A stretch of 14,422 bases of DNA from a virus (Duplodnaviria; Heunggongvirae; Uroviricota; Caudoviricetes), in the IMG/VR virus record IMGVR_UViG_2681813315_000020, one strand, 5' to 3'. The notes below the pieces were generated by a model, which saw only the letters and a list, made by a program, of their open reading frames with translations, had not been told where the DNA came from and did no database searches. A program made the translations under genes and the position numbers. This document shows, one piece after another, positions 1 to 14,422 of the stretch (within the stretch, counting starts at the first letter, position 1; each line of letters starts with the position of its first letter).

Positions 1-102
1 ATACTCATAACTAATTGAATTTAAACGACAAATAATATCTTAGATAACTTTAAAAATCGCAAAATGACTACACCAGTAACTACACCGTTCGGTGCACTGT
101 AT

Positions 103-130
103 GAAACAACGTGGAACAAATAGACACAAG
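103..130. repeat. Three 10-bp-phased GAACAAC-like repeats (GAAACAAC / GGAACAAA / GACACAAG), same motif family as arrays at 7092-7123 and 13111-13173
   Basis: Read directly: atGAAACAACgtGGAACAAAtaGACACAAG. The 12-mer ACAACGTGGAAC (107-118) is the exact reverse complement of GTTCCACGTTGT at 13154-13165. Confidence 0.6.
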
Positions 131-612
131 AAATATACAGGCGGGTCATCTTTCCAGGGGAAAGCACGCCAATTCATGAGGGGCGTTAATGTCGATATGG
201 GGATCCCCATAACGGGGCTACCTGGCTTTTTTTCCGGTTAAATGTCAATCAGGCTGGTGGGTTTTACATACCCTTGATCACCGTAATGATGATTCAGATC
301 TGCACCTTTCCACCAATGGTGGAAAAGCCCACAGCAGGCCGCCCAGCCTCCCCCAATGGGGGATTGTGGAAGAATCAACGGGTTAGGCCTTAATCATCTG
401 CGTAATCATAAGTAATCATAATGTTCATTCATCCAGCGCAATTTTGCGTTATCGGGAATATCAAACAGTTACCGCGCCGACTTCCTCAAATTGAGGTTTC
501 CGAAAATATCAGCGGGTTAGCGATTAAGCTGACCATTAATTAAACTGCGAAAATGTCGTAGTTGTGAGGGGTGTAGCCAACCCATTTTTGGACCGTCGGG
601 AATATCAACCAG

Positions 613-906
613 TTACCGCCGCAACCGCTCCGGCTTCTTCCAGTGGTAAGTAATTTTTTCTTTCTCCTGGTACATCTCCACGCGGCGACGATATGACAAC
701 AACTCCAGAACTCTGGTGCGTATATTGCGTATATCCACGCCGTTAAGCTCGATACCGTCACGGCGCATCACCTCAGCCACCACACGCGCGTAATTTTCGG
801 CTATCACGCTGTCCGGCTGCGTGGCCTCCTGTTTGCCTGCTTCCTGGCTGATTCCGGTAACGCGGCGGATTATTTTTAGTAGTTCGGTTTCGCTCATTCT
901 CGTCAT
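613..906 (-). CDS. Hypothetical 97-aa protein, translationally coupled to terL (ATGA stop/start overlap)
   Basis: ORF MTRMSETELLKIIRRV...; its ATG (906-904) overlaps the terL TGA (905-903). No family recognised by eye. Confidence 0.5.
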   Translation of the reverse strand: MTRMSETELLKIIRRVTGISQEAGKQEATQPDSVIAENYARVVAEVMRRDGIELNGVDIRNIRTRVLELLSYRRRVEMYQEKEKITYHWKKPERLRR

Positions 907-2564
907 ACCCCATCAAACGCCGCAAGCCGCTCTTTGTGGCTGTCGCTCATATCGAATGCAAAATCCTCGTGCTCTGCCTGGAATGTGCCAAACGCCATCA
1001 GCGCCGCAACGCTCGGGTCTATCTTGTTGGATGATTTTTTCTTGTTCGGCTTGATATTGGCGTTCGCGTCACTCTGCATCACAACATTACTCATTGACCA
1101 GGCCAGCACCGGATCGCCACGATGCACAATCACCTTCCGGTTAACAAAAACTTCGAACGATTTCGCCGCCGGACTGAAACGAAGGTATGTTTGCGGGAAC
1201 GGCTCCACCTCAAATCCTGCCCCCTGTAGCTGCGTCCTCAGGTGCGTGGCGTTCCATGTATCGAAGCCCACCAGCCTGATATTGAAATTCTCTGCATCCG
1301 CCATGATGTCATCACGGATACGGTCATAATCAATGCAGTCACCCGGTGTTGTGCGTATCCAGCCCGCCTTTACCCACTGGCGATAGATGGCGCGGTTTTT
1401 ATTGGCGGGGTTCTGTAGCTGAAATTCCGGCAGATAGTGACGGGAAACCAGCATAATCTTTTTACCGACCGGAAAGGCATAGCACACGCTGGAAATATCG
1501 CTGGTTGATGATAAGTCCAGCCCCGCGTAGCACTCCTGACCGTATAAATCCGCCTCCGCGAACGTTCCGGCGCACTCCGCCCATGCACCGTTACCCATCC
1601 ACGGCGTAGCCCCCTGACACCAGATATTGAATCGCTTGGTGAGCATTTCCACCTACTGCGACGGAATACCCCGCGCTTTCTGGATGGTTGAGGCCAGTTT
1701 TTCACGATCGACGGAAACATCGATATTGGGATTCGCCTTTATCCACATCGCCGGATCGTCAACCTCGCTTTCATCATCCAGCTCGTAAATCAGCACGAAC
1801 ATGGATTCGTTCACCTCTTCACCATCCAGTATCTGGCAGCAATAGTCATAGTGTTGTTTACAGGCTGAAACAACGTTGCTCCCCGATGTGGTGATGGCAA
1901 ATAACAGCCCCTCCGGACGCGCCCCCATTCCCAGTTCAAGCGCGGAATAAACCCCGTTGTCAGGGTGCAGGTGATATTCATCCACAATGGCAAGACTCGG
2001 GTTTGTACCTTCAATGGTTGCCGCTTTTGCTGCCAGTGGCTTTAACAGGCTGTTGGTTTTCGGGTGTATCACCTTGTGTGCCTGAATATTTACCCGCTTT
2101 CGTAACGGTCGGGATAAAAGGCACATCTGACGCGCATCATCAAACACGATCCGCGCCTGATCACGACTCACGGCGGCGGTGTAAATATCCTGCTGCCCGT
2201 TTTCCATAACCAGAAACCAGTTAGCCAGGATAGCGGCGACCGTGGATTTGGCATTTTTTCGCGGCACTTCAATGAATGCGCTGGTGTATTTGCGCCGTCC
2301 GGTGGCCTTAACCTTAAAGCCCAGGATGCACGCAAAGGCGAACTGCTGCCACGGCTCCAGCTCAATGGGGCTACCGCGCATTGCGCCTTTTACGTGCGGA
2401 CACACCCTGGAAAAGGCAATAAACCGCTCCACGACCTCCGGATCGAACGTGTAAAGGGGGTTTTCAAGGTCAGAAAAATACCGTTTAACGGCCTGTTTCA
2501 GTCGTTTACAGGCCGTAATTTTGCCGTTTTTTACGCCTTCTGCGTACTCATGCCAGGCGGTCAA
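903..2564 (-). pseudogene. terL: Terminase large subunit (HK97-like TerL) interrupted by an in-frame TAG at 1653-1655; N-terminal ATPase fragment 1656-2564, C-terminal nuclease fragment 903-1652
   Basis: ORFs 1653..2564 and 903..1652 are contiguous and in the same frame (...KARGIPSQ-TAG-VEMLTKRFNIW...). The N-terminal part carries a P-loop-like motif (VPRKNAKST) and TerL-like N-terminus; the C-terminal part resembles the terminase nuclease domain. Combined about 553 aa, typical TerL size. Apparent TTG start at 2564 preceded by AGAGGA; overlaps the terS 3' end. Confidence 0.75.
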
Positions 2565-2904
2565 GCTCGTCCTCTTCCTCTGTTTCCGGTGGATTTCTGC
2601 GGCGACTTACCGGGTCAAAACCCAGCAAAGAAGCCATTTTGATCATTATTCTTTCAGCGTCAGCCTTTGCGCTCAGGGCGGGGTTTCTGCTCTCGCTGCC
2701 CTGACTGTTAACAATGCTGAACCCGCGCGTGGCAAGGTCTTCGACGGCTTTGCGGTATATGGAGTAGTTAACGCAATACAGCTCCAGATTGCTCCAGTCG
2801 GCGGGGGTAAGGTCTTCCCGTCCGGAAAGCTGGCGCGATTTTTCCTTCCACTGCCTGACCGCGATTTCATCCAGGTAAGCGGGGGCTTTTGGTGGTCTTG
2901 CCAT
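2548..2904 (-). CDS. terS: Terminase small subunit, P27-like family
   Basis: Translation from the internal ATG at 2904 (MARPPKAPAYLDEIAVRQWKEKSRQL...GFDPVSRRRNPPETEEEDELD) matches the typical P27-family TerS N-terminus and acidic C-terminus. Lies immediately upstream of terL. Confidence 0.8.
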   Translation of the reverse strand: MARPPKAPAYLDEIAVRQWKEKSRQLSGREDLTPADWSNLELYCVNYSIYRKAVEDLATRGFSIVNSQGSESRNPALSAKADAERIMIKMASLLGFDPVSRRRNPPETEEEDELDRLA

Positions 2905-3192
2905 GTTCTTTTTTCGCCCAATTATTTTCAAAAAAATTCCCGTGCACAAAAATTTGAGGAGGCGGTCGGTGTCCGGCAGGGACGGTTTCGTCCTGAAAAC
3001 CACCCCCACCCCCTCTGACGGCCTCACCAGCGATTGCGAAAACATTCCATGACCTCGCGGTCACGGTCGGTTAATTGCTTCGCTGTGGTGCGTTCTGTGC
3101 GCCCTGTCCTGTTGGCTTTGTGCCCTGTCTCCTGTGTCTTCCATAAGTCACGCTGCCTTATCAGTCCACGTATCAGCCTGGTTTGCTCCTGT
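2905..3192. other. Candidate cos/packaging-site region between HNH and terS
   Basis: 288-bp gap in an otherwise tightly packed operon. Contains direct repeats GTGCGCCCTGTCCTGT (3098-3114) and GTGCCCTGTCTCCTGT (3120-3136), inverted repeat TGACCtcgcGGTCA (3049-3062), hairpin GGACGgtttCGTCC and C-tracts. In HK97-type phages cos lies between the HNH gene and terS. Confidence 0.35.
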
Positions 3193-3633
3193 TCAGTCAT
3201 CATCGCCATACATCCAGTCGTTACGGTGTGCTGCCCGTTCTTCCTGCTCGCGATACATGCCCGCCTTACGGTTCGCTTTCGTGGCTGGATCTTCCCGTGT
3301 CGTCTTACGGTTGTGGCACGTCTGGCACAATGCCTGGTGGTTCCACTCAGGCCAGAAGAGAACATCACCGCCGCCATTGATGGGGATGATGTGATCCACC
3401 ACAAGAGCTGGCGTATAAATCCCCTTAGCCAGACAACGCACGCATAACGGGTTTTTGCTCAGGTACAGGGCGCGGTATTTGTCCCACTGTCGGGAATACC
3501 CGCGCGCGCGGCGGTGTCCCCGTCTGGCATCCTCTGCACGCCATACAGCCCGTCTGTGCTCTTCACACTTGCCGGACTTCACGCGCTTATTACAGCCCGG
3601 CTCAGTGCATCGCCTTAATGGTTGCCACGGCAT
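3193..3633 (-). CDS. HNH endonuclease (phage packaging-associated)
   Basis: 146 aa with Cys pairs and the HNH core ...VVDHIIPINGGGDVLFWPEWNHQALCQTCHNRKT. Start overlaps the connector stop (TGATG). Sits directly upstream of terS as in HK97-type HNH-dependent cos packaging. Confidence 0.85.
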   Translation of the reverse strand: MPWQPLRRCTEPGCNKRVKSGKCEEHRRAVWRAEDARRGHRRARGYSRQWDKYRALYLSKNPLCVRCLAKGIYTPALVVDHIIPINGGGDVLFWPEWNHQALCQTCHNRKTTREDPATKANRKAGMYREQEERAAHRNDWMYGDDD

Positions 3634-3935
3634 CAGTACACCCCCACATCACGATAAACCGACCAGAGCGCAGAAATAGCCATAGGCAGTTCAGACTGCT
3701 CCACTGGTGAAACTGCTTCCCTGTTCTCGTACAGGAAAGCGATGTACATCAGGCAACCAACACGCATTGCCGGGGTAAATTCCAGCCCGTCTTCAAAACG
3801 TTTCCCGATATGCTTCTGGCAGGCTTCCAGCGCCGCATCGGTATACATTTTCAGAAGTTCGCCTTCACCGGATAAATCATCATCAAGTCGAAGATGTGCC
3901 CTGACTTCATCAGGTGTAATTCTGGCTTCACTCAT
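3633..3935 (-). CDS. Head-tail connector protein (gp6-like)
   Basis: Start at internal ATG 3935 with SD AAGGGAGA: MSEARITPDEVRAHLRLDDDLSGEGELLKMYTDAALEACQKHIGKRF..., typical N-terminal signature of gp6-like connector proteins. About 100 aa. Confidence 0.65.
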   Translation of the reverse strand: MSEARITPDEVRAHLRLDDDLSGEGELLKMYTDAALEACQKHIGKRFEDGLEFTPAMRVGCLMYIAFLYENREAVSPVEQSELPMAISALWSVYRDVGVY

Positions 3936-5142
3936 CTTTTCTCCCTTTAATTTCCACAGTCTGTTTCCATGCCTGGCTGAACTCATCACCACCTTCACGC
4001 GGCGGCATACCCTCGCGTTCGCGAGCTTCGTTCGGATTCATGATCCCGCTCTTAATCCCTTTCTCATACGTGGCATAACGTTCGGTGGGTGTGGCGCGCA
4101 GTAAATCGGCTGAATCAAACTCAACCAGATAACGGGTACCAGGTACGGGAGAAGTCACCAGCAAAGCGGCCTTGATTTGCTGTTCGAAGTTCGCCAGCCA
4201 CGGGCGCATTGTCATGGTCAGAAATGCGCGGCTCGCCTCACTGAAATTGCTGTAGGTGCTGTTGCTGTATTCCTGAAGAAAAATCGGCGACACGTTGAAC
4301 ATCCTGGCGATGTCTTCAATGGAGAAGCGACGGGAGGCCAGCCATTCCGCATCCTGGTTACTCATCCCCAGCCGCCTGTAATCCATGCCCCCTTCAAGGA
4401 TTGGCGTTTTTCCGGCATTTTTCGCCCCCTTGTAGCGTTCCAGTGCGTCTAATGCCTGTTTACCTTTCACGCCGTCCAGCCATTCACCTGACGTGATAAT
4501 CCCTGCCGCCATCATGCCATCTTTCATAATGCTGGCTCCGTGGCGCTGTTGAGCAAGGCCAAGCCCCAGCGCCTCACGGCAAATCGTGACGGGGGAACGC
4601 CCCAGAAAGCCATCATCCGAGGCATAGCGGAGATGCAGAACTTCTTCCTGTAAATACGTGCGCACCGTTCCTGTACAGGGTTCGGTGATGGTATAGCGGT
4701 ATTTGTGTGTGCCTGTGCGTTCCGGTACAACACACCCCGGCGCATAAGGATGAAGTGATTTTGGCTGCCCGTCCCGCCCCCACTCAATAACCGCATAGGC
4801 GTTACCGTTCAGCAGGCAGTGACGCATCATTGTGCGTTTAAACTGGTAAGGTGTCAGGCACGAATTAGGCTGCTCATTCAGCAGAATATCTACCGGGTGA
4901 CTGTCCAGCCATTCCCGCGCCTCTCTGCCCTTATCATTGCGTACCAGATACAGGTAACACGGCATCGTGGCCACCGCCTCAGCGATGACAGAAACCGCGT
5001 TCATCACAGCAGGCAATGATTCAGCCGTCCCGGCAGAAACATATTCTCCGGATCCGGTATTTGGTACACCAGACAACGCCAGAAAATCATCAATGGACAG
5101 GTTACGCAGATCGCTTTTTTTACGACTAAAAGGCCACCACAT
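3928..5142 (-). CDS. Portal protein, HK97 family
   Basis: About 404 aa from ATG 5142, 1 nt after the protease TGA. Portal-like segments: HPVDILLNEQPNSCLTPYQFKRTMMRHCLLNGNAYAV..., ...FSIEDIARMFNVSPIFLQ..., ...TMTMRPWLANFEQ... Confidence 0.85.
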   Translation of the reverse strand: MWWPFSRKKSDLRNLSIDDFLALSGVPNTGSGEYVSAGTAESLPAVMNAVSVIAEAVATMPCYLYLVRNDKGREAREWLDSHPVDILLNEQPNSCLTPYQFKRTMMRHCLLNGNAYAVIEWGRDGQPKSLHPYAPGCVVPERTGTHKYRYTITEPCTGTVRTYLQEEVLHLRYASDDGFLGRSPVTICREALGLGLAQQRHGASIMKDGMMAAGIITSGEWLDGVKGKQALDALERYKGAKNAGKTPILEGGMDYRRLGMSNQDAEWLASRRFSIEDIARMFNVSPIFLQEYSNSTYSNFSEASRAFLTMTMRPWLANFEQQIKAALLVTSPVPGTRYLVEFDSADLLRATPTERYATYEKGIKSGIMNPNEAREREGMPPREGGDEFSQAWKQTVEIKGRKDE

Positions 5143-5143
5143 A

Positions 5144-5704
5144 TCACAACCCCGCCAGTTCAGCCCAGCGATGACGATTATTTCCTGCCGGGCGTAATTC
5201 AGGGTACTGTGCAAACAACGAACGGTGGGCAATCTCCACGCCGGATTCGGGATAAGCAGGCATCGATGTTATCGTGATTTCACGGAGTTCTGCTGCGGTT
5301 ACAGTACGCAGATACGGTTTTTGCGCGATATTCCACTCCTCGCATAATGCGCGAAAGCCAAAGCTCATTCCTGTAATATCGCCACGTTCCACCAGCGTAA
5401 GCACATCTTTTCCAAGCTGGGTATTTGGCGGTGTCAGTTCAAAACGTAGCCCGGTGTTATCCTCAGTCAGTACCAGTGAGCCGGATTTGGTACGCCCCAG
5501 CAGTTGGGTATAGTCATGCTCATACAGACAGCGCACATCATTACCTGCCGCCAGATAGTCAGCAAAAGCCCCCGGCGTGAACTGTTCGCGAAACTCGTCC
5601 CAGATAATTTCTGAAAGGCTGTTCCAGCGAACGGCATAACCCACCAGTTTTTTATCGCTGGCGGTCAGTTCAGATGTACGGATTTCAAAATCGGTGTTTT
5701 TCAT
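5144..5704 (-). CDS. Prohead maturation protease, HK97 family (S78-like)
   Basis: Start at internal ATG 5704 (SD GGAG 7 nt upstream): MKNTDFEIRTSE...LVGYAVRWNSLSEII...GMSFGFRA...LREITITSMPAYPESG, matching the conserved blocks of HK97 prohead proteases. Confidence 0.8.
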   Translation of the reverse strand: MKNTDFEIRTSELTASDKKLVGYAVRWNSLSEIIWDEFREQFTPGAFADYLAAGNDVRCLYEHDYTQLLGRTKSGSLVLTEDNTGLRFELTPPNTQLGKDVLTLVERGDITGMSFGFRALCEEWNIAQKPYLRTVTAAELREITITSMPAYPESGVEIAHRSLFAQYPELRPAGNNRHRWAELAGL

Positions 5705-5753
5705 CGGTGTACTCCATAAAGCTGAAAAAGGAGGCCGAAGCCCCCTTTGCTCA

Positions 5754-6899
5754 TTACTTGCCAGCCTGAATTTCCAGAATCTTGATGGCGTTCGAATCCA
5801 CCACACCACCGCCCAGATATTTCTGGGTATAGATGTTAATGAATCCAGGCTCGCTGAAATCCGGACGGGTACGCGTACCGGTTTTATGGTCAACGATGAA
5901 ATAACCGCGCTTAAAGTCACCGACTGCAATCACACCGTCTGGCATAAATTCCAGATATTCAACCGGAAGCCCCAGCAGAGAATCAGGATCACCAGCCTGT
6001 AAACGATCGCGCCAGATGTAATCACCAGTGGCATTTTTCAGTTTTTGTGCGGAGGCGGCTGTATTTGAGTTCATCACCCATACAGCTTTTTTGCGGTACT
6101 TATTGCGCAGCGTAAATTTCAGGTCAATCAGCATATCGGCGCTGAGACTGCCAGTCACTTTTTTCGTCTGGAGCGTACCGAAAGGACGGGTTTTGTCATT
6201 ATCCGTAGCGCGCGGGAAAGTCAGGAAACCTTTGGCTTTTTTCTCGCCATCACCGGAAACCAGATCCGTTTCTTCGGTATCAACGAAAGTGTCGCCAATT
6301 TCAGAAGATAACCAGCCCATAATATCGACTTCGGAAAAATCGATAATTTCCTGAGTGGTTTTCGGGTAAGCGTAGATCGGATACAGGCGGATACTGACTT
6401 CATTCAGTTTTGGGGTTGCCGTCTGGTTACGTGCCGCACCTTCTTCGCCGTGTCCCACGACCGCACCCCCGGCAGAAACCAGTTGCTTAAATTCATTACT
6501 GTGAATGGTTTTAACAGTACAGATTTTACGCATCACCGACTCATCAGAAAGCTGACGCATAATTTCTCTGTTCAGTTCCGGGATAACCGTATAACCACCA
6601 TCAGCCGGAACACTGCCGGACAGGTTGCGGGTTTCCCCGGTCAGAATGTAAGAGCGTAGCTCATTTTTGGTGATTTTATCTTCGACGGGAACACCAGGCT
6701 GGTTACGTTCTTCATCAGCCACAGACTCGAGGCGGGAAATTTCTGTGTCGAGGGAATCGGCTTTTGCACGCAGTTCATCAAACTGTTTGCCTTCGTCATC
6801 GGTTAGACTGCGGTTTTCACTGTCGGCTTTTTCCAGCAGGGATCGCATCTGGTTTTTCAGGGCGGTTTTTTGCTGGCGGAGTTCGATTAATTTCTTCAT
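5754..6899 (-). CDS. Major capsid protein, HK97 fold, with N-terminal coiled-coil (delta/scaffold-like) domain
   Basis: 381 aa. N-terminal about 100 aa predicted coiled coil (MKKLIELRQQKTALKNQMRSLLEKA...). Body has HK97-family capsid blocks (GHGEEGAARNQTATPKLNEVSIRL..., ...DLVSGDGEKKAKGFLTF...). Confidence 0.85.
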   Translation of the reverse strand: MKKLIELRQQKTALKNQMRSLLEKADSENRSLTDDEGKQFDELRAKADSLDTEISRLESVADEERNQPGVPVEDKITKNELRSYILTGETRNLSGSVPADGGYTVIPELNREIMRQLSDESVMRKICTVKTIHSNEFKQLVSAGGAVVGHGEEGAARNQTATPKLNEVSIRLYPIYAYPKTTQEIIDFSEVDIMGWLSSEIGDTFVDTEETDLVSGDGEKKAKGFLTFPRATDNDKTRPFGTLQTKKVTGSLSADMLIDLKFTLRNKYRKKAVWVMNSNTAASAQKLKNATGDYIWRDRLQAGDPDSLLGLPVEYLEFMPDGVIAVGDFKRGYFIVDHKTGTRTRPDFSEPGFINIYTQKYLGGGVVDSNAIKILEIQAGK

Positions 6900-7054
6900 G
6901 AAGGTTTTCTCGCATTGGTTAAGATTCAGGACGTGAAACCAACACGGGGGGAGCGCCGCCCGACACTCTCGGCATCTCGCAGATCAACCCGGCATCGCGC
7001 AGGGGGTCAGGCGGCATTGTGGCGGCTCACGTCTGAGTGCCACACGCCAACATA

Positions 7055-7082
7055 TACATAAAAATCAGTATGTAAACATCAA
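7055..7082 (-). promoter_or_regulatory. Candidate sigma70-type promoter for the head/packaging operon
   Basis: On the minus strand: TTGATG (7082-7077) - 16 bp - TATGTA (7060-7055), immediately downstream of the GTTGTTC repeat array and upstream of the capsid gene with an about 150-nt GC-rich leader. Hexamers are imperfect; prediction by eye only. Confidence 0.3.
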
Positions 7083-7091
7083 CCAGAATCA

Positions 7092-7123
7092 CCGAACAAC
7101 CTGGAACAACCACGAACAAATAA
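7092..7123. repeat. Three 10-bp-phased GAACAAC repeats (minus strand GTTGTTC) between the terminator and the packaging-operon promoter
   Basis: Read directly: ccGAACAACCtgGAACAACCacGAACAAAt; same motif family as 103-130 and 13111-13173. Confidence 0.6.
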
Positions 7124-7142
7124 TTTACAAAACCTGAAAAAA

Positions 7143-7163
7143 GGCCCGGAAAAAATCCGGGCC
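7143..7163. terminator. Bidirectional rho-independent terminator
   Basis: GGCCCGG-aaaaaat-CCGGGCC, flanked by an A-tract upstream and T-tract downstream on the plus strand; on the minus strand it follows the stop of the 7173..7421 gene and precedes TTTTTCAGGTTTTG. Confidence 0.8.
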
Positions 7164-7172
7164 TTTATCGCT

Positions 7173-7421
7173 TTATTGTTTCACTGGCTCCCGCATTCTG
7201 CGTCTTATTTTCCACAAATATTCGATCATCGCTTCCACCTGCTCACGGTTGGTTGCGAAAATTTCCCCGGTCAGTGAGCTACGCAGAAAATCATGATGAT
7301 CCACAAAAAATAACGCATCGGAAGAAAGCAACCGACGATATTTTTTTGCTGTCGTGGTTTCCAGATCATCAAAACCATGAAGCTTTTTATGTTGCTGAAC
7401 TTCTTCAAATGTCACTGGCAT
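7173..7421 (-). CDS. Hypothetical 82-aa protein
   Basis: ORF with strong SD (AAGGGGGA) before ATG 7421; start overlaps the 3' end of the FinO/ProQ-like gene; followed by the terminator. No family recognised. Confidence 0.5.
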   Translation of the reverse strand: MPVTFEEVQQHKKLHGFDDLETTTAKKYRRLLSSDALFFVDHHDFLRSSLTGEIFATNREQVEAMIEYLWKIRRRMREPVKQ

Positions 7422-7942
7422 GTATCCCCCTTTGCTGCCCGGCGCTGGCGCTTGTGCTTCTCATTCAGCACCATCAGCCGTGTTTCTGCCTCCTGCTGTT
7501 CCTGTGGTGTCACTTCCCCACATGGCTGGCCTTTCAGATCGTAACGTGCGCCACCAGCTATCAGGGCGCGGTAATAGCGCGGAGACTGCGCATAGGATGC
7601 CAGCGTCGCACGTAATACCCCCGGCCCGAATGCCAGCCCCCTGACGGCGATATCCTGCATCAGGTCGTCGAATATCCCCACCTTAAGCGGCTTCGGTGCT
7701 TTATGGCTGAATAAGTCAGGCCACATCTCAGTGAGGCGGTTAACGCGTCGGCGGTTTTTGCGCTGCCTTTTGGTCATATGCTGCCACGGTGTCGCCCCTG
7801 TGGGCTTCTGCTGTGCGTTCTGATTGCCGGGTATCACTTTATGCGCCGATGTGGTTTTATCCTGCTCTTGCGCCGCCTGCGTCGTTTTCTGCGGCGTGCC
7901 GTAAATGCCTTTCGGCTTCCGGTTAATGGTCAGCGTTGTCAT
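7412..7942 (-). CDS. FinO/ProQ-family RNA-binding (RNA chaperone-like) protein
   Basis: 176 aa; region WPDLFSHKAPKPLKVGIFDDLMQDIAVRGLAFGPGVLRATLASYAQSPRYYRALIAGGARYDLKGQPCGEVTPQEQQEAE matches the conserved ProQ/FinO N-terminal domain pattern (PLKIGIFQDL...LR.AL..YT.S.RY...G..R.DL.G.P.GE). SD GGGGAAGG before ATG 7942. Confidence 0.65.
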   Translation of the reverse strand: MTTLTINRKPKGIYGTPQKTTQAAQEQDKTTSAHKVIPGNQNAQQKPTGATPWQHMTKRQRKNRRRVNRLTEMWPDLFSHKAPKPLKVGIFDDLMQDIAVRGLAFGPGVLRATLASYAQSPRYYRALIAGGARYDLKGQPCGEVTPQEQQEAETRLMVLNEKHKRQRRAAKGDTCQ

Positions 7943-7978
7943 GCCTTCCCCTGTAATTACTCTGTTCGCTGTTGTGAA

Positions 7979-8404
7979 TTAAAACGGTATGTTATCCCCG
8001 TACGGGTCATCGTGCTGGCTTGTCTGTTGTTTTGCCCTGTTCAGTGCGTCAGTGGCCTGGCCCTGTTGACCTTTTTTGCCGCCCGGTCGCGCCGTTCGCG
8101 CACTGATTACGCTGTCTGCAATAACCTGCCAGCCCCGCTGCGTTTCCCCGTTCTGGCCTGTCCACTGGCTCACCTGCATGTTACCCGCCACGCTCACCAG
8201 TTCGCCTTTGTGGTGTTTTGCCAGTGCGTCGGCCTGTCTGCCAAACGCCAGGACAGATAACCACATCGTCGCCGTTCCGTCATCTGCCTGGCTGCATGGC
8301 AGGGGAACCGCCATACTCGCCATCGCCATTTGTGTCCCCTTGCTGGTGGTCTTTAACTGCGGGTCAGCCACCAGCCGCCCGTAAGCCGCTATCTGTGCTG
8401 TCAT
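7979..8404 (-). CDS. ssb: Single-stranded DNA-binding protein
   Basis: 141 aa; OB-fold-like N-terminal region (AAYGRLVADPQLKTTSKG...WLSVLAFGRQADALAKHHKGELVSVAGNMQVSQWTGQNGE), Gly/Gln-rich linker and acidic C-terminal tail ending DDPYGDNIPF, cf. the canonical SSB DDDIPF tail. Confidence 0.8.
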   Translation of the reverse strand: MTAQIAAYGRLVADPQLKTTSKGTQMAMASMAVPLPCSQADDGTATMWLSVLAFGRQADALAKHHKGELVSVAGNMQVSQWTGQNGETQRGWQVIADSVISARTARPGGKKGQQGQATDALNRAKQQTSQHDDPYGDNIPF

Positions 8405-8646
8405 GCTGTCTGCTCTCCGGTTTTAACGTTGATGGTTGTCACCTGTTCCGCTTCGGCAATCTCCCGTTCTGTCAGTGTGGCAAAGTTTGCCGCTGCCGTG
8501 GTCATGAATGCGCTTACCAGTTCGGGATGTGCTTTTGCGTACCCTTCTCCCGCGTTGCGGTCGATGATTTTTATCGCCACCCTCAGCCAGTGTTCTGTCA
8601 AATCAAGGGCGTGAGATTGTGTTTTTTTTGCGTGCTGCGTTGTCAC
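8401..8646 (-). CDS. Hypothetical 81-aa protein between the origin and ssb
   Basis: ORF overlapping the ssb start (ATGA-type coupling). No family recognised. Confidence 0.45.
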   Translation of the reverse strand: MTTQHAKKTQSHALDLTEHWLRVAIKIIDRNAGEGYAKAHPELVSAFMTTAAANFATLTEREIAEAEQVTTINVKTGEQTA

Positions 8647-8691
8647 AGGCTTTACCTCACAGCAATAAAATAAAATTTTTGCATTTTAACC

Positions 8692-8920
8692 CTTCACCTG
8701 TTCACCTTTTGAGATTTTCCCTTTTTATTCATAATGTTAAGGGGTGAACAGTTTCACAAAAACTATTCACCAACTGTTCACCACTGTTCACCCTTAAAGC
8801 TCAATAAATAATCAAAAAGGTGAACAGTGAATAGTTTGGTGAACAGTTCACAAATAACTGTTCACCCTATAATGTACTGATATAAAAGATATTTATAACA
8901 GGGTGAACAGTGGTGAACAG
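8692..8920. repeat. Iteron array (about 12 copies of GGTGAACAG / CTGTTCACC in both orientations) with adjacent AT-rich tract 8663-8690; candidate replication origin
   Basis: Read directly: cttcaccTGTTCACC, GGGTGAACAG, tattcaccaaCTGTTCACCaCTGTTCACCc, aGGTGAACAGtgaatag...GGTGAACAGttcac...CTGTTCACCc, GGGTGAACAGtGGTGAACAG. Lies immediately 3' of the primase/helicase gene, the usual place for satellite and plasmid origins. Confidence 0.75.
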
Positions 8921-8933
8921 TTATTCCATAAGT

Positions 8934-10748
8934 TTAATTTTTGCTGTCGTCATTTGTGACCGATGCACATGATGGCATCCAGTCTTCTGAATCCTCTGTC
9001 AGTGTCACATTTGAACGCAAACCGTGCTTCGTTTTCCGTTTTATATACTCCCTGCCATATTCCGCCATTGCCCCCGGCATATCTTTACCGAAGCGCGTCA
9101 GTGTTACAGGTTTACCGAATCCGTGTGCCCTCATATATGCCAGATAGGCGTGATAAAGATACCTGCGCGGACTGAACGGAATAATTTCGGCATTACCCAC
9201 TAACAGACCATCACACATTACCGACGACATGAGATAGCCACAGAAGTCCACCAGCGAATCGCCCTCGCGTTTTATCACCAGAGCTTCTTCTGATTTCTGC
9301 TGCTCATACAGCAGGCGTTTAGCTTCGTCCTGGTCAGAAAAACGAGTAAGCAGATGGCGAATCACAACCGCCAGCTCTCCTTCTATTTTTTCTGCCAGCA
9401 TGGGGTCGCGCTCGTTCTCCGGTACAACCTCCGAAAAATTGAATATCACCCGACGACGTGAGATCCCCCCGCTGCGGTCACTGAATGACATGGCGTTATT
9501 GTTCACCGCCAGCACGACCGCCTGAATGCGTGTTGAGTAGGGGGCTTTATGCTTCGGGTCGATTGCCACCTTGTCACCGCCTGTAATAGCCTTAATTCCT
9601 GCGCCATCACCAGCGTAGCGGGTCATATCCGGCATGATAATCAGCGAAAAGCCAACCACTAACGCGCGTTCCCTTGCATCTTCCAGCGCCTTCATGCTTG
9701 CCGATACTGTGTTGGCCTTACCCGCCAGCATGGTGCAAATCTCCGCCATCACGCTTTTACCACTTCCCCCTGGACCTGTTACCTCAATGAATAACTGCCA
9801 GTCGTACCGGTTCGCCAGCACCATGAATAATGCAGCCAGCACGCGATCCGTCTTGCGGTCATTCTCTGCCACCGAGCAGCGTAACCACTTCCAGAAATTC
9901 GGCGCATGTGTTGCCAGCGTTTCCCCCTCTGCTGGTGGGCTGAAAGGTAATTCACTGGCAATTAACAACCAGTCGTTTTTGTTATGCTCCCGAAAATTAC
10001 CTGTTCTGGTATCAAATACCCCGTTACTGAATCCAATCAGGTTACGGGCTGTATTCCCCATTACAGGCAAACTTAACTTCATGGTATCGACCGCCGATTT
10101 AATGGCGTTCTGCGAATAGCTGATCTCCGCATCAATGAAAATCTGCGCCATAGCACGCTGTAACTCTTTATCCTGAATCGGCTCCCATACAACGCCGTTG
10201 TAATGGTGAACAGTGTCAGAGTCGGCATGAATCGCCAGTTCACCGCCATAATGTGCCAGGAGAACTTCGCCGCGCTGGCTTGCTCCCATCTGGTTAAGCG
10301 CCAGTGGTGCGGCGCTGTCTTCTGTTTTTTTCTTAACAGGAAGCTGAATCACCAGACCATCAGAAAGATTCTGGCGCTCACGGGCCAGATATTCGCGCCA
10401 GTTCTGCACCTCCTGGCCGTGCATACCCTCAGGATAAAAATTTGCATCCTGTACGCCTGCCGCCGCCAGCTTCTGACCAATCGCCTTTATCATTACTGGC
10501 GCAAGATATCCGGCCCTGAATATGCGCACGGATTTTCTGCCTTCCGGCACAATTTGCAGCTTATCCAGTTCGGATAACTGCTGCTCCCCAAGCCACACAG
10601 GAGGCTCATTATCTCCGGCCATACGCGCGTCATGTTCCTGCCATTGTTTTGCGTGTGACCAGGCATCACTACCCGCAAAAATAATGACTTCTGTTTCTTT
10701 GTGTTTTATGCCGCGTGACTGCTGTTTTACGTTCGGTGCCAGTTTCAT
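8934..10748 (-). CDS. Replication initiator: primase/helicase-type protein with D5_N-like region and P-loop NTPase domain
   Basis: 604 aa; Walker A FIEVTGPGGSGKSVMAE; upstream region resembles the D5 N-terminal-like domain found with phage/plasmid primase C-terminal NTPases. Stop codon abuts the iteron array. Confidence 0.8.
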   Translation of the reverse strand: MKLAPNVKQQSRGIKHKETEVIIFAGSDAWSHAKQWQEHDARMAGDNEPPVWLGEQQLSELDKLQIVPEGRKSVRIFRAGYLAPVMIKAIGQKLAAAGVQDANFYPEGMHGQEVQNWREYLARERQNLSDGLVIQLPVKKKTEDSAAPLALNQMGASQRGEVLLAHYGGELAIHADSDTVHHYNGVVWEPIQDKELQRAMAQIFIDAEISYSQNAIKSAVDTMKLSLPVMGNTARNLIGFSNGVFDTRTGNFREHNKNDWLLIASELPFSPPAEGETLATHAPNFWKWLRCSVAENDRKTDRVLAALFMVLANRYDWQLFIEVTGPGGSGKSVMAEICTMLAGKANTVSASMKALEDARERALVVGFSLIIMPDMTRYAGDGAGIKAITGGDKVAIDPKHKAPYSTRIQAVVLAVNNNAMSFSDRSGGISRRRVIFNFSEVVPENERDPMLAEKIEGELAVVIRHLLTRFSDQDEAKRLLYEQQKSEEALVIKREGDSLVDFCGYLMSSVMCDGLLVGNAEIIPFSPRRYLYHAYLAYMRAHGFGKPVTLTRFGKDMPGAMAEYGREYIKRKTKHGLRSNVTLTEDSEDWMPSCASVTNDDSKN

Positions 10749-11032
10749 TTTTTACCCCCTGCGACCAGCATTTCACGAATTTTGCGGATATGACTTGCTG
10801 CACGTTTCTGATTTACGGCTTTACGATGGCCCACCAGCGTGAAATCACGCCGGAACTGATAAACAGGCATCACGCAGTCATATTCGTAGCCATCACGGCG
10901 GTAAGTGATGCGCCGTTCTGCCACGCCTTTTATCGTTACCGTGCCGCCATAGTTATCCCGGAAAATATCGCCGGGGCGGATTTCAGGCCGAGCGGGGCCG
11001 CTGGCAGTAAAGCCAGAAATTTTCTGTTTCAT
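10745..11032 (-). CDS. Hypothetical 95-aa protein, translationally coupled to the primase gene
   Basis: ORF whose stop overlaps the primase ATG (ATGA); 5 nt after the stop of the upstream gene. Confidence 0.5.
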   Translation of the reverse strand: MKQKISGFTASGPARPEIRPGDIFRDNYGGTVTIKGVAERRITYRRDGYEYDCVMPVYQFRRDFTLVGHRKAVNQKRAASHIRKIREMLVAGGKK

Positions 11033-11037
11033 GGTTT

Positions 11038-11265
11038 TTATTCCGCGTTTATTTTTTTATCGTGAATTTCGATCGCTTTATTTAATTCGACGATTACCGT
11101 ATCGAGTAATGAAATAAACGCACCAGCAAGATTAGACTCACGCTCATCTTCCGGCGCATCACTTAAACCATCAAGCCAGATAAGAAATATTTGCCTCAAA
11201 CATTCACTGTTAGTCAGTGCGTTTTCTGCATGGCTCATTGATTTAAGATAACGGTCATCATGCAT
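11038..11265 (-). CDS. Hypothetical about 75-aa protein
   Basis: ATG at 11265 preceded by GGGGG (MHDDRYLKSMSHAENALT...); overlaps the stop of the upstream gene (ATGATGA context). The track ORF extends to 11310 but that start lacks an SD. Confidence 0.4.
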   Translation of the reverse strand: MHDDRYLKSMSHAENALTNSECLRQIFLIWLDGLSDAPEDERESNLAGAFISLLDTVIVELNKAIEIHDKKINAE

Positions 11266-11494
11266 GGTGCACCCCCTGAATATCTGCGGTAAGAATTTTG
11301 CCTGCCTCATTCAGCGCCATATCAGCACTAAATTGCATAAGAGCCAGTGAGTGAGGAACGAAAGCCCCGGCATATTCTGTTTCGCTGGTGGCGTGCTTAT
11401 GCGCCTTGTCTGCGATAACAGAAATATCAATCAGCGCGTGCATCAGCGTTTTGATGGCTTCGGCGGCTGCGTCCGGTGTGGTTTTATTGTGCAT
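11258..11494 (-). CDS. Hypothetical 78-aa protein
   Basis: ATG at 11494 preceded by strong SD AGGGGGAAA; overlaps the 3' end of the upstream gene. Confidence 0.5.
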   Translation of the reverse strand: MHNKTTPDAAAEAIKTLMHALIDISVIADKAHKHATSETEYAGAFVPHSLALMQFSADMALNEAGKILTADIQGVHHA

Positions 11495-11774
11495 AGGTTT
11501 CCCCCTGGCGAATACGGGCAGCGAATACCATCACGCAGCCATCAGGAGATTGCTGACGCGCTTCCTGTTCGCTGGTGGCCTCAATGGTAATCACGCGCGG
11601 TTGTGCCGTGCTCAGGGCAATAAAACGCCAGATGTATTTATTCAGGTTGTACGAGTCCCGCCCTTGCGGGTGTCTGGTATAATTTCTCATAGCTGCCTCG
11701 ATACGCTTTCTATCGTTGGTGGTTAGACGCCCTGCATGTGTGCCACCACTGCGGGGCGTTGTTGTTTGGTGCAT
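11484..11774 (-). CDS. Hypothetical about 96-aa protein, first gene of the replication operon; weak, unverified resemblance to Icd-like small proteins
   Basis: First ATG is at 11774 (MHQTTTPRSGG...YIWRFIALSTAQPRVITIEATSEQEARQQ...VMVFAARI); the longer track ORF would need a TTG start at 11861 inside the divergent promoter. Family guess is from memory only. Confidence 0.35.
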   Translation of the reverse strand: MHQTTTPRSGGTHAGRLTTNDRKRIEAAMRNYTRHPQGRDSYNLNKYIWRFIALSTAQPRVITIEATSEQEARQQSPDGCVMVFAARIRQGETYAQ

Positions 11775-11859
11775 CGCACCATTCGGTTTTAACCTATCAA
11801 TAAGTGAATCGCACCTCAAGCCTTTCTCTGAAATTTTTTTGTGTATACTGAATCGCACC
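11771..11859. promoter_or_regulatory. Divergent promoter/operator region with three ATCGCACC direct repeats
   Basis: gcATCGCACC (11771-11780), gaATCGCACC (11806-11815), gaATCGCACC (11850-11859). A good -10-like TATACT at 11844-11849 lies just before the third copy, upstream of the plus-strand RHH gene (SD AGAGAGGA, ATG 11880). Confidence 0.4.
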
Positions 11860-11879
11860 AACTTAGAGAGGATTCAGTA

Positions 11880-12059
11880 ATGGCAACAGGTTCAACAAAT
11901 AATAAGTCGCAACAGTTAAATGCCAGATTCCCGCATGATGTTGTTGCAGACTTAGAAAAAAATTTAGATGAAGGTGAAAGCAAGGCGCAATTTATAGTTA
12001 CTGCCGTTAAAGGTGAGATCAAACGCCGCCAGCGCCGCAAGGCCAAAGAGCAGGAGTAA
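11880..12059 (+). CDS. Small ribbon-helix-helix (Arc/MetJ-like) DNA-binding protein, candidate regulator
   Basis: 59 aa from ATG 11880: MATGSTNNKSQQLNARFPHDVVADLEKNLDEGESKAQFIVTAVKGEIKRRQRRKAKEQE; pattern of a short beta-strand (LNARFP) followed by two helices and a basic tail resembles the Arc repressor (FNLRWPREVLDLVRKVAEENGRSVNSEIYQRV). Confidence 0.5.
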   Translation: MATGSTNNKSQQLNARFPHDVVADLEKNLDEGESKAQFIVTAVKGEIKRRQRRKAKEQE

Positions 12060-12101
12060 CCATCACCAGCGCCGTGGTGTAAGGTATTACGGCGCATTGC
12101 T

Positions 12102-12290
12102 ATGCAGGACAACACAATGACCGATAAAGAATTGACCAAAACATTATCACCGACACGGAAAAGACGACGCAGAAAGATAGAGCATGAATCAGAAAGATTC
12201 GCGCCATGTGCTTTTGCCCTTGAGCAATTCCTTAAAGAGTACAGGGAAAAGCGCTCATTGCAGGTATGGCAACGAACTGAACCAGACTGA
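12102..12290 (+). CDS. Hypothetical small basic protein (start may be ATG 12117)
   Basis: ORF MQDNTMTDKELTKTLSPTRKRRRRKIEHESERF...; AGGA lies 9 nt before the second ATG; followed by an intrinsic terminator at 12357-12388. Confidence 0.35.
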   Translation: MQDNTMTDKELTKTLSPTRKRRRRKIEHESERFAPCAFALEQFLKEYREKRSLQVWQRTEPD

Positions 12291-12356
12291 TTGCATTGCC
12301 CACCAGCCGCAAATGTGGCATTGTTGGTGATGCTTTTGTTTTCCCTTGTTCTCACT

Positions 12357-12388
12357 GGCGACCCTTTTGCGGTCGCCTTTGTTTTGCC
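12357..12388 (+). terminator. Rho-independent terminator
   Basis: GGCGACC-cttttgc-GGTCGCC followed by TTTGTTTTG. Confidence 0.7.
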
Positions 12389-12481
12389 TGTTATCCGGCA
12401 ATTGTGGCGCTTCGCCACACGGTTGATATAATTCCCCTGCACTGATCCATTTTTTTCGCAGCAGGTTAATTGTTCAGAAAG

Positions 12482-12510
12482 GCGGTTCCTTATCGGGGCC
12501 GCTTTTTTTA
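12482..12510 (+). terminator. Second candidate rho-independent terminator
   Basis: GCGGTTCC-ttatc-GGGGCCGC (two G-U wobbles) followed by TTTTTTTA. Confidence 0.45.
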
Positions 12511-12622
12511 TGCCTGAAAATACCCGATAACATGGCTTTTTAGTTTCACCAGGACGAACGAAGCCCCGCCCCTGTTCGGGCGTATATCCAGTATTCATGG
12601 TTAGATCTCTGTGTTAGTGGAT

Positions 12623-12647
12623 GGCTGGCGGCGGTGCGCCGCCAGCC
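12623..12647. other. Perfect GC-rich hairpin 3 nt past the alpA stop (no U-tract)
   Basis: GGCTGGCGGCG-gtg-CGCCGCCAGCC, 11-bp stem. Confidence 0.5.
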
Positions 12648-12650
12648 TGA

Positions 12651-12854
12651 TTAGTGAACTGCCTCGCGGCTGTCCTTCCATGCCAGAACTTCGGATAAAG
12701 ACCAGCCAACGGAACGACCGCCGAGTTTACGCCGTGATGGGAATTGTCCAGTCTTCTCCAGGCGATACCGACATGAGCGGCTCAGGCCTGTAAGTTGCTG
12801 ACATTCTTTTTCACGTATAAAGCGATCAGCGCTTAACACTATTGCCTCCGTCAT
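12651..12854 (-). CDS. alpA: AlpA-family transcriptional regulator / excisionase-like winged-helix protein
   Basis: 67 aa (or 62 aa from GTG 12839, preceded by GGAGG): ...DRFIREKECQQLTGLSRSCRYRLEKTGQFPSRRKLGGRSVGWSLSEVLAWKDSR, matching the AlpA signature (R.....TGLSRSTIYRL...G.FP...KLG.R.V.W...EV..W). Downstream of and co-oriented with int as in CP4-57 (intA...alpA). Confidence 0.8.
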   Translation of the reverse strand: MTEAIVLSADRFIREKECQQLTGLSRSCRYRLEKTGQFPSRRKLGGRSVGWSLSEVLAWKDSREAVH

Positions 12855-13110
12855 TTCTCAAAGAGTCATTTGGTGTCTTATTGTGTCGTATTGTTCCCGC
12901 TAGAGTGATGAATGGCAAATATTGGTGACGGTCGTTTTACAGATATGGGGTAATTAGAATAAAAATACTTTTAATTCATTGTGATGTAGTAGCGTAAAAT
13001 TTTGCTTTTACGCCTTTTTTACATATTTTTAAGAGTGATTCGCCAGTGTATAAAAAAACAGTGTACATATAAAAATCAAATGGTTATGAATGAGTTTGAT
13101 TTTTAATCCG

Positions 13111-13173
13111 CTTGTCCCATTTTGTTCCTTGTTGTTCGTCGTTGTGTCTCGTTGTTCCACGTTGTGTCCGTTC
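13111..13173. repeat. Six tandem 10-bp-phased GTTGT(T/G)(T/C)C repeats between the int stop and alpA
   Basis: Read directly: CTTGTCCCat TTTGTTCCtt GTTGTTCGtc GTTGTGTCtc GTTGTTCCac GTTGTGTCcg. Opposite orientation to arrays at 103-130 and 7092-7123; shares an exact 12-mer with 103-130. Confidence 0.65.
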
Positions 13174-13192
13174 TGAAAAATCACGAAAAAAA

Positions 13193-14422
13193 TTATATTT
13201 CTCTGGCTATTGGCAGTGTGGTTACGTTTTCGTGAGTACCCGCCAGTATCTCTAACCGCTCTGTCCACATGTCCAGCGCATTACGTTTCGCATCGAGATA
13301 ACGGGAGTGGTTATAGACTCGCTGCATCCCTGGCATCTGGTGAGCGGTGAGTTGTTCGACAATATGCGGATCCACGCCTAAATCGTTCAGCATCGTGGTA
13401 AACGTGCGCCGTATATCGTGTAGTGACCAGTGCGGATGGTTTAATTTTTTGTGCGTGAATCTGCCGTATTGCGACACGCTGGCTTCCTGTTTCAGTTCCC
13501 CGAGTAATAGTCCTGTGTGTCGGTTCTGCTCCACCAGCCGTGTGACGAACGGTAAAATGCTTTCCGGTATTGGCCTGAATATGGCGACCTTCGTTTTGCT
13601 GTGCTCCTTCGGTACTGTCCAGAGCATTTCCTTAAAATCCCACTCCCTGATCTCCGACAGCCTCAGTTCTCCGGTTCGGCAACCAAACACAATCAGGAGG
13701 CGGATTAGTGCGCTGTAGTAGGGCGGGAATATTTTTTTATCCAGCGCCTGTAATAATTCGCCCAGTTCTTTGTTACTAAGCACGCGTTCGCTTATGCCCG
13801 GCTTTTTGCCAACGTCCACCACGTTGAGATCATCCAGAACGTTACTGACTGCGTAGCGACGTTTACGGCAGAACTTAAGCGCCTGTTTACACGCCTGCAT
13901 CATGTGACCAGACGTTACGGGGGATTTTTTGCGTATCCGGTCAAAACAGGCCAGCCAGTGACGTAATTCGCATTTATCCAGTGGCATGTTACCGATGTGC
14001 TGTATGACGTGATTATTCAGGCGACTTTTCAGGCATACATAATCGACACGGTTTTCCTTTACGTGCGTTTCCAGCCAGTAACTGATCGCATCGCCAACCG
14101 TTACGGGTTTTAACGCTTCCTGCACAGTGTAGTTCAGTTCATGACGTGGGTTTTTCCCTTCTGCCAGCCATGCACGACACTTTGCGGCTTTTTCCCTGGC
14201 TGCTTTAAGGCTCAGATCGGGATAGTTTCCCAGCTTCAGGCGTTCCGGTGTGGTATCCCTTCCCGTTCCAGCCCTGTAGGTGAAGTACCAGGTCAATTTA
14301 CCTGATGTTAAATATTTCACGCTCAGATTACCGCCATCGCTATAGAACGTATTTTTCTCCGCTGGCTTACCATAAAGTTTTCTTAACAATGTATCGCTCA
14401 GTTTGTTAAGCGCTCTGCTCAC
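13193..14422 (-). CDS. int: Tyrosine integrase, P4/CP4-57 type, with N-terminal arm-binding (DUF4102-like) domain; 5' end at or just beyond the window edge
   Basis: 409 aa reaching the window edge, where the first codon is GTG. N-terminus LSDTLLRKLYGKPAEKNTFYSDGGNLSVKYLTSGKLTWYFTYR resembles the P4-type integrase N-terminal domain; C-terminal catalytic region has HDIRRT and VYNHSRY (tyrosine recombinase His-x-x-Arg and Tyr motifs). Confidence 0.9.
   Translation of the reverse strand: MSRALNKLSDTLLRKLYGKPAEKNTFYSDGGNLSVKYLTSGKLTWYFTYRAGTGRDTTPERLKLGNYPDLSLKAAREKAAKCRAWLAEGKNPRHELNYTVQEALKPVTVGDAISYWLETHVKENRVDYVCLKSRLNNHVIQHIGNMPLDKCELRHWLACFDRIRKKSPVTSGHMMQACKQALKFCRKRRYAVSNVLDDLNVVDVGKKPGISERVLSNKELGELLQALDKKIFPPYYSALIRLLIVFGCRTGELRLSEIREWDFKEMLWTVPKEHSKTKVAIFRPIPESILPFVTRLVEQNRHTGLLLGELKQEASVSQYGRFTHKKLNHPHWSLHDIRRTFTTMLNDLGVDPHIVEQLTAHQMPGMQRVYNHSRYLDAKRNALDMWTERLEILAGTHENVTTLPIAREI

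Follow-up and report, generated by a model that had tools for sequence, protein, structure and literature searches.

Phage-inducible chromosomal islands of the capsid-forming kind (cf-PICIs) are a family of phage satellites described in 2022-23, of which the prototype is EcCIEDL933 from Escherichia coli O157:H7 EDL933 (Alqurainy et al. 2022 preprint; He et al. 2025 preprint). This island makes its own T=4 capsids of 47.5 nm, which hold island DNA only, and it needs phage tails alone for infectivity; tail-less, DNA-filled cf-PICI capsids are released and are able to capture the tails of other phages. Induction of EcCIEDL933 requires alpA, and its transfer is abolished by loss of any gene of the packaging module except gene 1792, the loss of which severely reduces it. 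Here we compare with these systems the IMG/VR virus record IMGVR_UViG_2681813315_000020, a stretch of 14,422 nucleotides that is referred to below, at its full length, as the window. The window is most probably nearly the whole of a ~14.6-kb cf-PICI of E. coli, rather than a prophage fragment, which was put into the yifB/comM gene by its own tyrosine integrase. Taken as a whole, this explanation, in which a cf-PICI in yifB has a cycle like that of the prototype with two departures from it, is given a probability of about 0.88. The two departures, an amber codon in terL and the lack of a head-closure gene, can be read directly from the DNA.

All three characterised cf-PICIs carry both neck genes, a pair that sets tail specificity, and in KpCIDSM30104 and EcCIGN02175 it is the neck genes that decide which phage tails are captured (He et al. 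2025 preprint). The SatelliteFinder catalogue contains 969 cfPICI, and the median element measures 14 kb and encodes 19 proteins; its Type A, which has all 11 core components, is found in 13% of Enterobacteriaceae genomes, and Types B and C have 10 or 9 of the 11.

Results

Gene content and class of the element

Protein families were assigned by Pfam and PHROG profile searches of the open reading frames (ORFs) of the window. The gene order and orientation are collinear with those of EcCIEDL933, from int through to the ORF after terL. All of the convincing core genes lie on the minus strand, with two small plus-strand genes besides; the genes are tightly packed and all are intact save one, terL. 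The P4-type tyrosine integrase (13193-14422; Arm-DNA-bind_3 4e-18, Phage_integrase 1e-16), whose start codon is the final three bases of the window, is 85% identical in protein sequence to that of EcCIEDL933, and AlpA, an activator and excisionase-type regulator (12651-12854; Phage_AlpA 3e-18), is 89% identical. The replicon comprises a P4 alpha-like primase/SF3 helicase (8934-10748; D5_N, DUF5906 and Pox_D5, with phrog_864 DNA primase at 5e-193), an SSB (7979-8404; 1e-15; 68% identity) and, just downstream of the primase gene, an A+T-rich replication origin (8698-8920) that holds nine GGTGAACAG iterons in both orientations, where 0.09 copies would be expected over the full window.

The head and packaging genes follow, and percentages are again protein identities to EcCIEDL933. 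They encode an HK97-fold major capsid protein (5754-6899; Phage_capsid, Pfam 7e-61; 74%), a prohead serine protease (5144-5704; Peptidase_S78, 1e-44; 61%), a portal (3928-5142; 7e-91; 80%), the head-tail adaptor Ad1, an HK97 gp6-like ‘connector’ (3633-3935; Pfam 4e-5, PHROG phrog_40 Ad1 2e-28; 56%), an HNH endonuclease of HK97-type packaging (3193-3633; 9e-10; 84%), a 61-aa protein (3024-3209; phrog_3173; 78%), a TerS of the P27/Terminase_4 family (2548-2904; 4e-23; 88%), a TerL (903-2564; 91-95%) that an amber codon divides into an N fragment with the ATPase domain and a C fragment with the nuclease domain, and a 97-aa protein after terL (613-906; phrog_1561; 74%). The 61-aa protein appears to be the counterpart of EcCIEDL933 gene 1792, as numbered by position on the published locus map. 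The capsid protein matches PDB chain 9gyi_B (E 1e-184), the N-terminus of which is identical to the EDL933 capsid. No ORF on either strand matched a tail, baseplate, tape-measure or lysis family in the Pfam and PHROG scans, and the ten longest antisense ORFs gave no PHROG match.

The element is assigned to the cf-PICIs because its size, content and gene order fit that family. cf-PICIs are small islands (~10-18 kb) with their own integrase and defined att sites, and the element is ~14.6 kb; it has the AlpA-type regulator of the Gram-negative members, its own primase/replicase and origin, and its own major capsid protein, prohead protease and portal. Its HNH and TerS genes are intact, and TerL is present, yet with an amber at codon 304; of the two neck genes of the class (‘adaptor’ and ‘connector’) the gp6-like Ad1 alone was found. 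There are no tail, holin or lysis genes inside the element, which is flanked by chromosomal core genes, and its packaging genes are distant from those of real phages, as detailed below. An earlier note on this DNA had proposed an integrase/AlpA module, a replicon of its own (primase/helicase, iteron origin and SSB), the absence of tail, baseplate, tape-measure and lysis genes, and a cf-PICI rather than a degraded prophage; all of these hold, with strong profile matches for both int and alpA. Its claim of a ‘complete’ HK97-type head and packaging set stands in so far as every gene that it listed is present with a profile match, but not as to completeness, terL being interrupted and the head-closure gene absent.

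The P4-type integrase, AlpA and the D5_N/Pox_D5 primase-helicase are common to P4-like satellites and to classical, non-capsid-forming PICIs, and the element might thus be thought to belong to either. However, capsid, protease, portal, adaptor, HNH and TerL are all encoded by the element itself; portal, connector and adaptor are the markers by which SatelliteFinder excludes a classical PICI; and P4-like elements are defined by a psu-delta-sid operon and the lack of capsid genes, whereas Pfam and PHROG scans of all window genes gave no Sid, Psu or Delta-type match. Such an assignment deserves hardly any credence.

Boundaries, host and relation to phages

E. coli is the host species. The window matches, in part, 1991 of 5426 complete E. 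coli genomes, with up to 7 matching places per genome, and in 67 of them at least 80% of it is covered at 96-99% identity; the ~14-kb gene set recurs in E. coli at more than one att site. An exact-protein look-up led to contig CYCR01000016.1 (GCA_001284745.1; L005), which is 100% identical over window positions 1-12564 and thus comes from the source strain or from a clonal relative of it. On the terL side of this contig the C-terminal 455 codons of yifB/comM follow at once, and then maoP and hdfR. The int side is known from four loci that encode the identical integrase: in all of them a 59-codon N-terminal fragment of yifB is found ~180 nt upstream of int, with the ilv operon beyond it. An att core, ATCCGCTATT(T/G)ATAAT, is duplicated at both junctions of the near-identical E500002 copy inside yifB; the window starts 9 nt inside one such core and ends ~190 nt short of the other. 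When the outer flanks are joined, the rebuilt empty site is contiguous within an intact yifB in 5398 of the 5426 genomes. It is clear from the flanking yifB halves, the duplicated core and the intact empty site that the element is precisely bounded, with a length of ~14.6 kb.

Comparison with 50,697 phage records revealed no near-identical phage. At the DNA level (megablast) only 4 phage records matched, all at <80% identity and with ≤35% of the window covered. The nearest capsid matches have 58-69% identity and include two satellite-like genomes of 15-16.5 kb that were deposited as phages, a 3.8-kb fragment and a 106-kb Klebsiella phage record; capsids of bona fide temperate phages such as SfI and SfII are ~36% identical, and the best true-phage adaptor matches reach 34-39%. 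The likeness of the adaptor was considered as a means of naming the helper phage, but was dropped since true-phage adaptors are so distant.

It could be argued that the element is not a satellite at all but a decayed prophage from which the tail and lysis genes have gone, as its head and packaging genes are of HK97 phage type. Against this, the duplicated att core in yifB bounds the element precisely with core genes on both sides, the gene set recurs in the 67 complete genomes and is not confined to one att site, its gene order follows that of a satellite proven by experiment, its capsid shares ~36% identity with those of true phages, and its tightly packed genes are all but one intact. The irregular boundaries, scattered gene loss and near-identity to complete prophages by which prophage remnants are recognised are not seen, and there is a single lesion. 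Two further signs had been named in the earlier note, namely tail or lysis genes within the same att-bounded element, which would mark an ordinary prophage, and head genes near-identical to those of a resident complete prophage, which would mark a fragment; both were looked for, the latter among all of the phage records, and neither was found, the yifB halves closing the element on each side. A prophage origin is thus very improbable, and the element is taken to be a cf-PICI in what follows.

An inherited amber codon in terL

The terL gene has an in-frame TAG at 1653-1655 (minus strand), codon 304 of 553, where close relatives have TGG (Trp304). When the protein is aligned with HK97 TerL (6z6d; E 4.5e-43), the stop falls between the ATPase domain and YAGLDLS, the first strand of the nuclease. 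The amber allele is present in 0 of the 5426 complete E. coli genomes, none of 401 matching records is exact, and in all 71 IMG/VR relatives for which terL is complete the gene is uninterrupted. Since no complete genome has the allele it was first assumed to be private to one assembly or an error, in which case terL would really be intact, and the difference is indeed of a single base (TGG to TAG). This assumption was overturned when the identical 303-aa truncated product was found on 21 or more contigs, which come from NCBI assemblies, ENA metagenomes and Logan runs. The product stands under four NCBI protein accessions, named E. coli; the allele is carried by two assemblies at NCBI, by scaffolds from ENA metagenomes and by Logan assemblies made from separate runs, and TAG was confirmed in six of the six amber loci read. 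An error is accordingly close to inconceivable.

There are at least two amber sub-lineages, 7-12 single-nucleotide polymorphisms (SNPs) apart in ~7.5 kb. Relative to window positions 623-8391, the metagenome-derived amber contigs L009 and L010 have seven SNPs in common and L009 has five more; the 12 of L009 are five synonymous, five non-synonymous and two intergenic. These counts were considered as a gauge of selection after the amber arose, but the numbers, five synonymous and five non-synonymous, are too small for a verdict. The amber carriers L005 and L008 have identical chromosomal flanks, and the persistence of the allele may therefore be due to vertical inheritance within one host clone.

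The window copy is probably unable to package. It can probably still excise, replicate and make heads, but it would neither package nor spread unless TerL were supplied in trans. A packaging-dead island that is inherited vertically is the simplest reading, because loss of nearly every packaging gene abolishes transfer of the prototype. Alternatively, the island may be fully transfer-competent, either through a split TerL whose nuclease half is made by restart at an ATG or through TerL from a closely related cf-PICI resident in the same cell. The stop lies in the linker that joins the ATPase domain to nuclease beta-strand 1; the sequence TAG-GTG-GAA-ATG contains a Shine-Dalgarno-like AGGTGG and has an ATG 6 nt after the stop, and gene callers predict a second ORF of 247 aa. 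Furthermore, the allele is found on the 21 or more contigs and in at least two sub-lineages, every other gene of the island is intact, and TerL could come in trans from one of the up to 7 matching places of an E. coli genome. However, the split gene occurs in none of the 5426 complete genomes and none of the 71 viral-contig relatives, and selection therefore keeps terL whole; the examined amber carriers have identical chromosomal flanks, as fits the clonal inheritance of a dead allele; and we know of no natural TerL that is made of two polypeptides, which counts against a split enzyme. Transfer competence of this copy is thus unlikely, although less so than an error in the sequence, and the packaging-dead island remains the preferred explanation.

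A second terL-like match, of ~30% identity and covering the nuclease domain only, was observed near the island in 15 IMG/VR relatives with 98.5-99.6%-identical TerL (L046, L020, L039, L043-L045, L047-L050, L052-L054, L077 and L090), of which L046 alone was inspected in detail. In L046 (9557-12248) the second terL is truncated at its 5' end, and beyond it come the portal and protease genes of another HK97-type prophage. The island thus appears to have entered the terL of a prophage, in which case it would be embedded in a helper. The end of the L046 element differs from that of the window in having GCGGGTTAT repeats and in being without the 97-aa ORF.

An adaptor-only neck

In EcCIEDL933 a head-closure gene of the Pfam Phage_HCP type lies between the portal and adaptor genes. 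In the window the adaptor gene abuts the portal gene directly, with nothing between them, and no head-closure protein was found elsewhere in it, either by tblastn (E >3) or with a three-sequence HMM run on all six frames (best E 0.36). The small ORFs of 97, 82 and 61 aa were considered as substitutes and rejected, because EcCIEDL933 has homologues of all three as well as its closure gene.

Such a direct junction of portal and adaptor genes occurs in 133 complete E. coli genomes as well as at 46 near-identical IMG/VR loci. In the portal tree and the adaptor tree alike, several adaptor-only clades are interleaved with head-closure-positive clades; one closure-positive locus, L014, shares its integrase and att site with the window and is 94% identical to it in the portal region. 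Since the layout recurs in so many complete genomes and in several separate clades, the missing head-closure gene is a lineage trait and not decay. An exact 30-mer of the junction had no match among GTDB species representatives, a search that is uninformative on diverged copies.

No discussion of adaptor-only islands was found in the part of the cf-PICI literature that was searched. SatelliteFinder would class them as Type B, so that membership of the family is not excluded by its operational definition. That they form a working, recurrent and so far unstudied sub-type is a tentative proposal, which we hold to be somewhat less probable than its opposite. If they are mobile, the head-closure (stopper) protein is perhaps taken from the helper along with the tail; otherwise, a one-protein neck would have to seal and dock the DNA-filled heads. 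Either route, if true, would alter the range of tails captured, and the recurrence of the layout on several branches is relevant to the published view that tail specificity is set by the adaptor together with the connector.

Control sequences, att arms and cos

Short repeats with a 10-bp phase and the consensus TTGTNC, also written TTGT(T/G)YC, occur in four arrays: three copies in the att arm (103-129, minus strand), three copies of TTGTTC upstream of the capsid-operon promoter (7093-7119, minus strand), and three and six copies between int and alpA (12871-12897 and 13112-13171, plus strand). No triplet array was found in 300 shuffles of the sequence. The arrays have the same arrangement in EcCIEDL933, in JP538 and E500002, and in four further loci, but none occurs in Escherichia phage vB_KppS-Ant, whose regulator is a different one. 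The phased repeats may be AlpA sites through which excision is coupled to the activation of the packaging operon; this role is proposed here, and no published definition of an AlpA binding site for PICIs was found.

The packaging-operon control region (7049-7166, minus strand) begins with a strong intrinsic terminator and T-run (7140-7166) between the replication and packaging modules. A 17-mer, TTTTGTAAATTATTTGT, that is invariant in four diverged cf-PICIs follows the terminator, and beyond it are the phased repeats and a promoter-like -35 TTTACA / -10 TATGTT pair at 7076-7049. In the capsid leader there is also a conserved hairpin-like sequence, GTGGCACTCAGACGTGAGCCGCCAC (7019-7043), which is common to vB_KppS-Ant and largely diverged in EcCIEDL933. 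The conserved order of terminator, 17-mer, phased repeats and promoter, taken with the recurrence of these repeats at both att arms and beside alpA, provides a testable map of the places at which the island regulator may act.

The att-proximal arm (1-130) carries, besides the phased repeats, two ACTACACC arm-type repeats (67-74 and 79-86), where 0.17 would be expected. Arm-type and phased repeats stand at both ends of the E500002, JP538 and EcCIEDL933 elements. The ACTACACC repeats look like integrase arm sites; in JP538 they change along with the N-terminal arm-binding domain of Int. The JP538 integrase (L001 21208-22437) is 93.6% identical to that of the window (13193-14422), with 26 differences that are mostly in this N-terminal part; its arm repeats are changed to AACTACACC, and its core, TCACGATATT(T/A)ATAAT, different yet similar, lies between smrA and abgR. 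This copy looks like a natural example of integrase retargeting.

The cos site is probably within the 119-nt gap upstream of terS, between that gene and the gene-1792 homologue (2905-3023, minus strand). The gap contains the motif GGGGGTGGGGGTGGTTTTCAGGAC (2990-3013, minus strand), which is also present in EcCIEDL933. The linear vB_KppS-Ant record ends exactly after GGGGTGGGGG..GTTTTCAGGAC and restarts 22 nt before terS; cos is placed here because that record ends at the same motif, the placement resting on the ends of a record and not on mapped ends.

Accessory and small genes

Two small genes are on the plus strand, one of the YlcI/YnfO family (11880-12059) and one encoding a hypothetical protein of 57 aa (12117-12290). 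A 260-aa ORF on the minus strand (11816-12598) is doubtful because it overlaps both of them. It is rich in Cys, Ser and Arg and has no family match, and a 56%-identical counterpart is annotated in EDL933; the two plus-strand genes look more protein-like than the ORF that overlaps them. On the minus strand there are, in addition, three small genes from the PHROG scan (11038-11310, 11258-11494 and the Icd-like 11484-11690), a gene for a DUF4222 protein recognised by profile match (10745-11032), and genes for proteins of 81 aa (8401-8646; phrog_1231) and 82 aa (7173-7421; phrog_1957).

A 176-aa protein with a ProQ/FinO domain (7412-7942, minus strand; 1e-23) is a putative RNA chaperone and an accessory gene product. 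Its gene was found in every yifB-site relative fetched and occupies the position that a PerC-family regulator has in EcCIEDL933; no publication on cf-PICI proteins of the ProQ/FinO kind was found.

The non-coding tail of the element, from the last gene to the att arm, contains four copies of an 18-nt repeat, AATATCARCNGGTTASCG, at 371-618. The same stretch has a 43-nt imperfect duplication. Part of the stretch is conserved in EcCIEDL933, and E500002 has unrelated sequence in its place. There is no tRNA in the window, an Rfam scan of it gave chance miRNA-like matches alone, over the inverted repeats of the origin, and the small and accessory ORFs had no match to defence systems in PADLOC.

Discussion

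The proposed cycle of the element has five steps, all of which have been shown for EcCIEDL933 and are carried over to the window element by homology and synteny. A helper phage would switch on alpA; AlpA and Int would drive excision, and AlpA would activate the island operons. The primase-helicase and SSB would then replicate the island at the GGTGAACAG iteron origin, while its capsid protein, protease and portal would build small HK97-fold heads. HNH, TerS and TerL would cut cos upstream of terS and fill the heads with island DNA only. Finally, the portal-bound adaptor would dock a tail taken from a phage, with a neck that is either adaptor-only or completed by a helper protein. Helper-dependent induction, small T=4 capsids made by the island and the capture of tails are thus predicted from homology and genome size.

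Several points weigh against this interpretation. Nothing experimental bears on the window element itself, for which induction, small capsids and tail capture are all deductions. The packaging module of the prototype loses transfer when its head-closure gene is lost, and that gene is absent here; the mechanism of the prototype cannot, then, be transferred unchanged. The amber codon is found in at least two sub-lineages, which is more persistence than would be expected of a freshly dead element. Finally, the att cores themselves lie just outside the window.

The element is an ordinary member of a known and abundant family, from the same species as the prototype. The class call alone adds little, with ~1000 cf-PICIs catalogued and near-copies in dozens of complete E. 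coli genomes. The features of interest to specialists are the adaptor-only neck, the inherited terL nonsense allele and the conserved control architecture. Of these, the allele, a natural one that is inherited over several isolates and metagenomes, offers a ready-made packaging-null control.

EcCIEDL933 likewise has arm-type and phased repeats at both att arms, in the int-alpA gap and upstream of the capsid operon. It is slightly larger (15.4 kb against ~14.6 kb), is inserted between roxA and phoQ rather than in yifB, has PerC in place of ProQ/FinO, and its terL, unlike that of the window, is free of the amber codon. The capsid of the window is three residues shorter, with the gap beside the ‘connector loop’. 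The replicases differ more, the D5/Pox_D5 helicase of the window and the DUF927 replicase of EcCIEDL933 having their first 145 aa alone in common. Over these residues the two otherwise unrelated proteins are 88% identical, and each of the two replicase types can stand behind one and the same integrase (L011-L014), so that the N-terminal domain has the look of an exchangeable module. KpCIDSM30104 and EcCIGN02175, with which tail piracy has been shown (He et al. 2025 preprint), have the same family and packaging logic; going by their published description they have adaptor and connector genes, whereas the window has the gp6-like gene only.

EcCICFT073 and EcCIED1a, classical PICIs of E. coli, have the same left half of int, alpA and primase, and an AlpA-dependent induction, as the window element. 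They use the capsid proteins of the helper and redirect its packaging, whereas the window has its own set from capsid to TerL. Satellite P4 is similar to the window in its P4-type integrase, its AlpA/Vis-type regulator, its alpha-like primase-helicase and its reliance on a helper for parts of the virion; it differs in that it reshapes the P2 capsid by means of Sid and Psu and has the cos of the helper, whereas the window element has its own head and terminase.

Phage HK97 and the window have in common an HK97-fold capsid, an S78 protease, a portal, a gp6-type adaptor and cos packaging by HNH, TerS and TerL. Unlike HK97, the window is without gp7-type head-closure, tail, lysis and lysogeny-switch genes, its genome is about one third of the size, and identity to phages is low. 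A closer relative is vB_KppS-Ant (LR881103, 16.5 kb), deposited as an induced prophage. Its capsid is 68% identical to that of the window, and it has the same order of packaging genes, iterons of the GTGAACA type and, at the presumed cos, the same G-rich motif. It differs from the window in having a head-closure gene (‘gp9’), another regulator instead of AlpA, a large extra ORF annotated as tape measure, and none of the phased TTGTNC arrays.

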